NCBI GenBank assembly: GCA_030627385.1
Contig: DAOUSF010000004.1
Location: 1 to 33,177 of the forward strand
Direction: 5' to 3'
Length of the DNA: 33,177 nt
From: Methanosarcinales archaeon
GTDB lineage: Archaea; Halobacteriota; Methanosarcinia; Methanosarcinales; Methanocomedenaceae
The position numbers and the translations under genes are program-made. The notes beneath the pieces were generated by a model. That model did no database searches and was not told the origin of the DNA. It saw nothing but the letters and a program-made list of their open reading frames with translations. Shown here piece by piece: positions 9,306 to 11,399 of this stretch; within the stretch, counting starts at the first letter, position 1, and each line of letters starts with the position of its first letter.

Positions 9306-9380
9306 TGGGGTTGCTGAGATTCGAACTCAGGTTGCGGCGTCCCGAACGCCGTAGGATGGTCCAGGCTACCCTACAACCCC
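9306..9380 (-). tRNA. tRNA-Pro(CGG), intronless, CCA not encoded
   Basis: Acceptor stem GGGGTTG/CAACCCC plus A discriminator, anticodon arm CGGCG-TTCGGGA-CGCCG, T arm CTGAG-TTCGAAT-CTCAG. Confidence 0.96.
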
Positions 9381-9568
9381 TACTGGTATGGAGCGAAGGT
9401 ATCCACCAGTTTTATGTGGGAGAGCAACATCCTGCGGCAACAGTATCTATCAATACCAAGGTCGTCCAGGACTTTTCCCGGATCCTCAAATTCTGACACG
9501 CGCCTTTCATACTCTTCCCATGAACTGGCAATGACCTTCCCACATGTGAAACATCTTACCGGAATCAT
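9380..9568 (-). CDS. rpoN: RNA polymerase subunit N (Rpo10)
   Basis: [11 protein letters not shown] and [11 protein letters not shown] signatures. Confidence 0.98.
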
Positions 9569-9577
9569 CTTAATGGC

Positions 9578-9982
9578 TCATCTATATGATTTCTGGGACT
9601 TGGCTCTTGCACCTGGTCCACCGAACTTCTTTGTTTCCTTCTGTCTGGAATCATTGACCAGAAGGCTCCTGTCATAAGCAAGCATGGCGTCCTTAACTGC
9701 CAGATCCCCGGTCCATTCTACGACACCTTTTCCAATTGCAGTCCTGATGGCATTTGCCTGACCCATTACTCCCCCGCCGCGAACATTTACATTAATGTCG
9801 ATCTTTGAGGATACACCATCTCCGATAAAGGCCACAGCTTCCAGTATCTTGAGTCTTGCTATGTCCGGTTCGTATATTTCTATGGGTTTTTTGTTAACTC
9901 TTATGCGGCCTACGCCTTCTGTGATCTTGGCCCTGGCAACGGCAGTCTTATTTTTTCCTGATGTATTGATGATTTTGACCAT
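9578..9982 (-). CDS. rps9: 30S ribosomal protein uS9
   Basis: [33 protein letters not shown]. Confidence 0.98.
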
Positions 9983-9997
9983 TCATCTTCCTCCTGT

Positions 9998-10417
9998 TTA
10001 GGATTTAGCACCCAATCGTTTGCTGAGTTCCTCAAGCCTGATATACTTGACAGAGCTCAATTTATCCATATTAGCTTCGGCAATGGATATTTTCTCTTCA
10101 CTGCTCAGTGCATCGGGCACTCCGATAAAGGTTTTCAGTCTTGACATGGCATCCTTGCCTCTTGCTCTTTTATAAGGCAACATGCCACGTATTGTTCTTT
10201 TTAATATATGGTCGGACCGTCTCGGGAAGTATGGCCCGAATTCTCTATTACCCCTATCAACGGCCTGTTTATATTCACCAAATGTGGAAACCCTTGAGCC
10301 TGAAATTACAGCTTTCTCGGCATTTACGATGAATATCTCTTCACCTTCAAGAAGCTTTTTGGCTACAACACTGGAAAGCCTGCCCAATATCATTCCATTT
10401 GCATCTATAATTGTCAT
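9998..10417 (-). CDS. rpl13: 50S ribosomal protein uL13
   Basis: [35 protein letters not shown]; start moved to ATG 10417, which follows GAGGTG. Confidence 0.97.
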
Positions 10418-10428
10418 TTCAACGCACC

Positions 10429-10794
10429 TCACTGCATTATCTTCACGCCGGAACCATTTGGGTTCTCTTTAACCAGGTCCTCGATGTTCAGGCAGGACCC
10501 CCCTTTTTTCGTGATCTTTTCCCTTGCACTGTCGCTAAATCCCAGTGCAGCCACTATTACCTTATGCTCAATGTTACCGGAACTTAACACTTTTCCAGGG
10601 ATGATAATTGTTTCATCCTCACTGGTATATCTATTGATCTTGCTAAGGTTCACGTCAGAATAATTCCTTGTGGGGCGTTCAAGACGCTTTGCAATGTCCC
10701 GCCAGATATTCACTCCATTATCGCGGGATAAGGCCTTGAGGTCGACGATAAGGCCTAATATGCGTGGATTTGTTTTTCTGATTATTTTACTCAA
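10429..10794 (-). CDS. rpl18e: 50S ribosomal protein eL18
   Basis: [27 protein letters not shown]; TTG start after GGAGG. Confidence 0.97.
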
Positions 10795-10802
10795 TTATTG
10801 TT

Positions 10803-10950
10803 CCTCCGTATGACCCTAAAAAAGGGCCTGACTCACGCAGATTCGCTGCGTTCGGGTCCGTACTGCCCATACGCCATAGGATGTTCTAATCCCTACGGTC
10901 AGGTTATTTGGAAATAAAAACCAAATTAACTCTGATGCATCTGTGAGTTA
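10803..10950 (-). promoter_or_regulatory. Candidate structured 5' leader RNA of the rpl18e-rpl13-rps9 operon
   Basis: GC-rich non-coding island with hand-folded helices CCTGAC/GTCAGG, CGTAGGG/TCCTATG, ACGCAG/CTGCGT, GCCCT/AGGGT and TAACTC/GAGTTA, ending at the SD. Regulatory function is inferred. Confidence 0.6.
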
Positions 10951-11080
10951 TATTAATTACTTAATACTACGACGGCTTCATATTACTTGTCAATATAAAT
11001 AATTTGTTATGTATGGGGTCTTTTCATTTGAAATGAGATTCCGGCAGTTGCAAAAAATCGGTACCGATAGTGGAATGAAT

Positions 11081-11282: not shown

Positions 11283-11365
11283 AATTCAAAATCACTCTTC
11301 TTCTGGAATTTAATATTGAAAATGAGTATATTCTACATAAAGAGTATGACATTCAGGATGGTAGC

Positions 11366-11399
11366 ACATCAGATATCCACTTACATCAGATATCCACTT
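11366..11399. repeat. Perfect 17-bp tandem duplication spanning the uvrB stop codon
   Basis: acatcagatatccactt at 11366-11382 and 11383-11399. Confidence 0.92.

Follow-up and report, generated by a model that had tools for sequence, protein, structure and literature searches.

The 33,177-nucleotide stretch of methanosarcinal DNA analyzed in this study (hereafter the window) carries, on its minus strand, a region between uvrB, which ends at 11386, and rpl18e, which begins with TTG at 10794. An initial annotation of this region proposed a structured archaeal ribosomal protein leader (r-leader) with a possible Shine-Dalgarno (SD) switch, and thereby raised the question of whether it is a regulatory RNA and, if so, which protein it would bind. 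The gene cluster runs from rpl18e through rpl13, rps9, rpoN, tRNA-Pro, rpoK and rps2 to a MEMO1-family gene, and continues with mevalonate kinase, isopentenyl phosphate kinase, IDI-2 and RNase J. All the motifs named in the annotation are present on the minus strand, such as CCTGAC at 10903-10898, GTCAGG at 10832-10827 and GGAGG at 10807-10803, together with both inner hairpins, GGG/CCC, CGTATGG, TCATACG, two TACGG copies, the upstream hairpins and TTG at 10794. The features of the leader and the first genes, as they stand after the analysis, are as follows.

10992..10999, minus strand: TATA box (TTTATATT) with an A-rich BRE-like flank, near-invariant in 14 of 14 aligned family members, with a downstream spacer that varies
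~10969, minus strand: predicted transcription start, placed at +30 from the start of the TATA box
10927..10950, minus strand: accessory upstream hairpin 1, seen in the sequence, genus-specific and not conserved outside the genus
10907..10925, minus strand: accessory upstream hairpin 2, seen in the sequence, similar in three of four family genera and missing from one
10894..10898, minus strand: anti-SD arm CCGUA, 5' strand of the outer helix P0 (OFF) or of the extended P1 (ON)
10878..10893, minus strand: P1 hairpin, which folds and in the predicted ON state extends to 10898/10874
10873..10876, minus strand: UGGC, 5' strand of the closing helix Pc, matching 23S 655-658 at the top of helix 27
10869..10872, minus strand: 4-nt linker R-N-A-U, in which G10872 is the equivalent of the eL18-pocketed nucleotide 659
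10854..10868, minus strand: P2 hairpin, with a base equivalent to helix 28, 97% paired
10852..10853, minus strand: GA linker between P2 and P3, GA in 74 of 75 parsed leaders and AA in one
10835..10851, minus strand: P3 hairpin, equivalent to helix 31, 97.3% paired, with a loop of 3-47 nt
10833..10834, minus strand: GA linker after P3, in which A10833 is the equivalent of the eL18-pocketed A746; invariant in both alignments, partly by construction, since the parser and the search pattern demanded it
10829..10832, minus strand: GUCA, 3' strand of Pc, equivalent of 23S 747-750
10812..10828, minus strand: P4 hairpin, 91.2% paired, missing in Methanogaster-like genomes
10806..10810, minus strand: UACGG, 3' strand of P0, which shares two G with the start of the SD
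10803..10807, minus strand: Shine-Dalgarno GGAGG, 8 nt before the TTG start, conserved
10429..10794, minus strand: rpl18e, which heads the cluster and encodes the predicted ligand eL18 (PRK04005 above cut-off; 1S72 chain O, E 9.5e-32)
9380..10432, minus strand: rpl13, rps9 and rpoN (open reading frames with family matches), closely spaced and possibly coupled

A start near 10969 gives the window a predicted 5' UTR of about 175 nt. A TATA-like box lies upstream of the motif in 74 of the 75 parsed leaders, at a distance specific to the family, and in Methanogaster-like genomes the predicted start is only 4-12 nt before Pc. Assembled contigs of relatives were obtained from 8 of 24 RNA runs and cover the element in all eight; some runs join leader and gene on single contigs. 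Several contigs end at 10937-10970, near the predicted start, and those of three runs extend past the TATA box to 11011. No 'L18' entry was found among the published start sites in the supplement text of PMC5378194 (17,521 characters) and PMC5499594 that was searched. In the window, folding of the region 10795-10940 beats 200 of 200 shuffles (z -2.73), with weaker values for shorter pieces (z -1.06 to -2.0).

The regions upstream of 93 rpl18e loci were parsed, 62 found via protein search and 31 via the core pattern, so that the total is biased towards carriers. A junction core was found in 75 of the 93; the parser overlooked one further Methanoperedenaceae locus, whose core has a P3 of four pairs. 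The conserved fold is a three-way junction composed of a closing helix UGGC/GUCA, a 4-nt linker, the hairpins P2 and P3 and two GA linkers, enclosed by the outer helix P0 that covers the SD. All 75 parsed leaders have a purine at position 1 of the 4-nt linker, and 74 have A at position 3. Fifty loci share an order termed form A here: YGGC, the 4-nt linker, P2, GA, P3, GA and GUC, with YGGC pairing to GUCN. Covariation was evaluated on 25 of these 50 leaders, leaving aside Methanogaster-like loci, a genus without P1, the GoM-Arc1 locus, long insertions and near duplicates. With the model P0-Pc-P2-P3-P4, 95.5% of 599 cells are paired and eight pairs show double changes; the covariation score of 0.313 is reached by none of 500 shuffles, and slid controls pair 22-37%. 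These counts are not probabilities, because kin are not independent. Pc is 98% paired, with three invariant pairs and one with a double change, while double changes occur in three of four pairs of P2 and three of six of P3. P0 is 94.4% paired in this alignment, and is weakened or missing in five of 19 members of the window's family. The register of P1 varies between families, and the covariation count leaves this hairpin aside.

Parts of the annotated structure are retained in this fold and others are replaced. The hairpin P3 and the GGG/CCC stem are conserved. The CCTGAC/GTCAGG pairing, put forward as the closing helix, proved genus-specific (60.7% of cells paired), and CGTATG/CATACG pairs in 74% of cells; neither covaries above shuffles. 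The long first hairpin of the annotation is 80% paired on the form A alignment and corresponds to the predicted open state. Rfam models gave no match on the window element at gathering score or at E up to 10, and none in 18 related loci at E up to 1, including the L4-Archaeoglobi, eL15, S15 and bacterial L13 models. The annotation had called for this comparison and for cross-genome alignment with covariation, and its view of a structured archaeal r-leader with a predicted SD switch outside the named families agrees with both outcomes. A conserved structured cis element before rpl18e is almost certain.

The junction appears to be one arm of a switch. The energies given here are nearest-neighbour predictions from which tertiary contacts are excluded. 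In the folded 5' UTR of the window the SD is open (0.4 kcal/mol to open) and CCG is paired with UGG; when the junction is imposed, at a cost of 4 kcal/mol, CCGUA becomes available for pairing with UACGG and the SD-opening cost climbs to 2.3 kcal/mol. Imposing the junction increases the SD-opening cost by more than 0.5 kcal/mol in 46 of the 50 form A leaders. In models of the free RNA the junction is a minor conformer, with a probability of 0.0003 in the window and family medians up to 0.1. Of the 50 form A leaders 30 retain CCGUA/UACGG, and all four Methanotrichaceae have CCGCA/UGCGG instead, a double change; in this tally one Methanocellaceae locus was mis-parsed at the SD. In Methanogaster-like genomes, which have neither P1 nor P4, Pc continues over the SD. 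The CCGTA switch of the initial annotation is real, except that the conserved alternative partner is UGG of the closing helix and not the inner TACGG, a copy variable even within the genus.

A comparison with rRNA suggests what might stabilize the junction. Since the window's assembly has no 23S gene, a genome of the same genus was used. Its helix 27, in the Rfam structure, ends with UGGC/GUCA and is followed by GA, helix 28, helices 29-30, helix 31 (CGUA/UGCG) and UGGA, and the leader reads as this junction minus helices 29-30. Shared with the 23S helix 27/28/31 junction (Haloarcula 655-662, 730-750) are UGGC/GUCA with its G-U wobble, the purine after it, the GG/CC base of the next helix, the CGYA/UGCG helix and the A before GUC. 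The leader differs in its first linker, which has 4 nt instead of 2, and in its last, which is one G shorter (UGA against UGGA), and the outer Pc pair does not track each lineage's own rRNA.

With a profile built only from form A leaders, the best match in 23S plus 16S rRNA is the helix 27 junction in three of three rRNA sets. It scores 39.9-43.9 bits with the first gap ranges, which were set after the match had been seen, against shuffle maxima up to 33.7 (0 of 150 in each set). When pairing was required and up to 70 nt were allowed at each of the three linkers, the best match in every set coincides exactly with the ends of helix 27; its score was attained by 3, 0 and 0 of 200 dinucleotide shuffles. 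With gaps of 0-70 nt everywhere and no pairing, helix 27 is still the best match in real rRNA, at 39.9 against 35.5 +/- 2.0 for 60 shuffles with a maximum of 40.4; profiles with permuted columns score no higher than 34.4 on real rRNA. Tested by itself, the 12-nt 3' strand gives no significant mimicry, its score being reached by 109 of 500 shuffles. The likeness to 16S rRNA suggested in the annotation did not hold up, the best 16S score being 27.7-30.8 bits against 39.2-43.9 for 23S helix 27.

According to Table 4 of PMC3009514, L18e in the Haloarcula ribosome (1S72) pockets two extruded bases, A659 and A746. Two haloarchaeal 23S genes agree with 20 of 21 numbering anchors taken from that paper, and in both of them 659 immediately follows the 5' strand of helix 27 and 746 immediately precedes its 3' strand; two other genes fit 14 and 11 anchors, and none of the first 30 haloarchaeal genes fitted the 1S72 numbering fully. 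Position 659 is G in methanosarcinal rRNA and in the first haloarchaeal rRNA set compared. By alignment to the halophile L18e, eL18 of the window keeps the pocket residues Asn49, Lys68 and Leu70, with Asp47 in place of Glu. As the best rRNA match is the junction whose flanking bases 659 and 746 are pocketed by eL18, this protein, one of the candidate ligands of the initial annotation, is now the favoured one, and we infer with good confidence from the sequence match that it is the ligand of the leader.

The following mechanism is proposed. Without protein, folding predicts that CCG pairs with UGG in a long P1, leaving the junction open and the SD free. Free eL18 would bind the three-way junction, the match to the top of helix 27, and would supply the 3-4 kcal/mol that the junction lacks. 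Once formed, the junction would pair UGGC with GUCA and release CCGUA to pair with UACGG over the SD, in a four-strand exchange. Closure of the SD would likely repress translation of the rpl18e-rpl13-rps9 cluster. Because the leader is predicted to copy the rRNA site of eL18, spare eL18 would likely shut off its own synthesis. Based on these models, eL18 probably represses initiation through closure of the SD by the leader junction.

A different order of the same parts was found in the family to which we assign the name Methanosarcinaceae. None of its 25 parsed loci has the 5' YGGC and P2 hairpin of form A. They read AUGUUC, GA, P3, GA, a GURAGA hairpin closing with UCUUGC, GGAG and GRACAU, and all 25 fit the permuted form and none the unpermuted one. 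In this order Pc is folded as a hairpin that keeps the terminal G-C and U-G pairs, the closing strand of P2 comes from the 3' side, and the place of the 4-nt linker is taken by the SD (GGAG in 23 loci, AGAG in two). In an alignment of 23 of the 25 loci 98.9% of 374 cells are paired; covariation of the permuted P2 rests on one double change together with 10 cells with wobble changes. Model R2 gives one match in each of 97 Methanosarcinaceae genomes with E at most 3.2e-11, adjacency to rpl18e being checked for the fetched loci. High scores of the permuted form in four of nine Methanogaster-like loci fall in coding region without an SD and were treated as chance.

The Methanosarcinaceae junction is thus an apparent circular permutation of form A, by which GGAG of the SD becomes a linker and would place its first G in the pocket of eL18. 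Form A is present in other orders and another class, and the taxonomic ranks suggest that it is the ancestral order. It already has GU...AC-GGAG-G downstream within the open state, a plausible raw material for the permutation. In one Methanosarcinaceae genus (L063-L069) a second AUGUUC with UUACU was observed 20-30 nt upstream of the permuted core. Pairing of this segment with the Pc strand or with the SD region is possible, which makes it a candidate competing open state of the permuted form.

Another protein than eL18 could be the ligand, namely uL13, uS9, uS2, uL4 or uL15, and rRNA imitation is lacking in many r-leaders. For uL13 there is a bacterial parallel, as it controls the rplM-rpsI operon and L13 leaders are known (PMC7247131), but the Rfam L13 models do not match the leader and the uL13 contacts listed in PMC3009514 lie elsewhere in 23S rRNA (G2815 and tetraloop 1238). 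Both uL4 and uL15 bind near the same rRNA junction, and uL15 is homologous to eL18. The contacts listed for uL15, tetraloop 691 and A700 (PMC3009514), are neighbours of the helix 27 junction but are missing from the leader, and neither uL4 nor uL15 is among the genes identified in the rpl18e cluster. With the best rRNA match at the eL18 pocket site, and not in 16S, a ligand from this list is unlikely. A more distant reading takes the tandem GA linkers, almost invariant on both flanks of P3, as a kink-turn-like junction bound by L7Ae, by which the operon would be tied to L7Ae and not to its own product. A GA-linker junction presumably recalls the k-junction motif. A K-turn consists of tandem G-A/A-G pairs beside a 3-nt bulge between two helices, but in the leader the place of the bulge is occupied by the 4-nt linker and the P2 helix, which covaries. 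The second linker A is moreover the equivalent of A746, which is extruded into eL18 in the ribosome, and conservation spans the equivalents of helices 27 and 31, which L7Ae binding would not explain. An archaeal L7Ae autoregulatory leader is known (PMC7247131 supplement), and yet its protein is a very improbable ligand here.

Alternatively, eL18 might bind with mRNA cleavage, decay or premature termination as the outcome, or the leader might be a protein-free stability element or thermometer. The processing of mRNA is described as controlling r-protein synthesis in Methanolobus (PMC5499594), by itself the junction is unstable, and a U-run occurs in the P4 loop of the window's genus. This U-run is a loop and is not conserved, however, no terminator-like site was found in the leader, and the three family architectures all end on the SD, through P0, through Pc extended over the SD, or with the SD as linker; we consider such outcomes quite improbable. 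That the leader is a non-functional relic, either a decayed tRNA-Leu or a stray rRNA fragment, might be suggested by the tRNA-Leu that precedes rpl18e in nine of 20 loci of other families. Given compensatory changes across two classes and freely varying loops, its chance is close to nil; the tRNA candidate was rejected, with no ARAGORN or Rfam cloverleaf call on the element. The preferred reading remains repression of initiation by eL18 through the junction.

The leader was found in Methanosarcinales, Methanotrichaceae and Methanocellaceae. Almost every carrier genome has a single copy, which precedes rpl18e wherever its position was checked; in the window's genome it is single-copy, with one match to model R1. 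Of 201 genomes of the order, 157 contain the core pattern, most of them in one copy, against about 31 for a reversed control. A stricter pattern over the species collection gave at least 119 stretches; among the matches listed, 100 of 119 are directly before rpl18e, and the remaining 19 have no rpl18e, the 11 with titles shown being bacterial. Three fetched pattern matches (L042, L043 and L047) without rpl18e were dropped. Model R1 matched six of six genomes of the Methanotrichaceae family and 10 of 10 of the Methanocellaceae family, and weakly 11 of 18 Methanosarcinaceae. In 23 other families only one of 115 genomes was matched (E 0.047), away from rpl18e. The other model matches adjoin rpl18e wherever both positions were listed.

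In 15 of 20 loci of other families rpl18e is preceded by tRNA-Leu or by an rpoD-like ORF end, the latter recognised by eye; this placement is an arrangement described in PMC10833476. The other five of the 20 loci lack it, and no leader was found in them either. From this pattern of leaderless loci, the leader occurs only where the operon is split, and the split alone is insufficient.

Archaeal r-leader candidates in Table 1 of PMC7247131 are those for L4, eL15 and S15 only, with none for rpl18e, and its main text has no match for 'L18'; the portions of PMC9932298, PMC5499594 and PMC5378194 covered hold nothing on a leader before rpl18e. None was found in the literature searched, where subscription journals are sparsely covered, and absence from print is unproven. 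The S15-Methanomicrobia, S15-Halobacteria, eL15-Euryarchaeota and L4-Archaeoglobi motifs (PMC7247131) are likewise structured and covarying RNAs before archaeal r-protein genes, and those for S15 share the imitation of an rRNA site as well, in lineages that overlap with those of the rpl18e leader. The rpl18e leader differs from them in its genes, its predicted ligand and the lack of a model match. In bacteria (E. coli, Firmicutes, Bacteroidia) the orthologous L13-S9 genes, rplM-rpsI, have L13 leaders that control them, whereas here rpl18e is the first gene, the apparently mimicked site is that of eL18, and Rfam gives no match. The logic is likely that of the L1, L20 and S15 operators, which mimic rRNA and are autoregulatory, a reduced mRNA copy of the rRNA site competing for free protein. 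The L20 and S15 cases are also found in PMC7247131. Compared with them, the rpl18e leader has a new fold and a new putative ligand, a five-way rRNA junction cut to three-way, and a predicted four-strand exchange.

Natural circular permutations are listed in the introduction of PMC10085705 for hammerhead, twister, 5S rRNA, group II intron, tmRNA, rRNA, tRNA and SRP RNA. As in those RNAs, the Methanosarcinaceae form keeps the junction nucleotides and pairs and changes the strand order. The list has no cis-regulatory mRNA element, and the permuted leader would in addition move the SD into the binding site. Judged from sequence comparison, the rpl18e leader is a new r-leader family of a known kind, with a well supported fold and a specific ligand prediction. 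The complete picture, in which a three-way miniature of the five-way 23S junction binds eL18, works as a four-strand switch, is the first of its kind for eL18, and has the SD as a permuted linker, is slightly favoured over its failing in some part.

Few archaeal r-leaders are known, and none for eL18 in the literature searched. This ribosomal protein is specific to archaea and eukaryotes, and the leader would, if the assignment is true, be its first autoregulatory RNA and, if eL18 binds, define a minimal eL18-binding RNA. The permutation, if true, shows a regulatory RNA rewired so that the ribosome-binding signal doubles as a protein site. The Methanosarcinaceae include genetically tractable species. 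With a named ligand, two named nucleotides and the leader present in this family, feedback on archaeal r-protein synthesis becomes directly testable.

Several further observations were made at these loci. The start codon of rpl18e is TTG or GTG throughout the window's family (TTG at 10794 in the window) and mostly ATG in other carriers. tRNA-Pro(CGG), at 9306-9380 in the window and also seen in L021 and L025, stands in the cluster after rpoN in nearly all relatives and, in some Methanosarcinaceae, is interrupted by an intron. About 17 nt are duplicated in tandem across the uvrB stop codon (window 11365-11399, minus strand). One contig titled Anaerolineales bacterium (L173) has both leader and rpl18e and is likely a mis-binned archaeal contig. 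In one genus (L022, L026 and L027) a conserved sequence of its own lies about 60 nt upstream of rpl18e; it could not be parsed as the leader and may be a diverged or independent element. In L087, L091, L102, L101 and L265, a tRNA-Leu(GAG)-like gene just upstream of rpl18e has a long D-arm insertion, possibly an intron at a non-canonical position; such genes are mostly missed or miscalled by ARAGORN. Matches to the P3 pattern (GAACAC..ACGAACTC..GCGTGAGT) are multi-copy in some Methanoperedens-like genomes, with 10 in G128 and five in G120; the same sequence, also present in G073, G052, G061 and G156, is probably an unrelated repeat.
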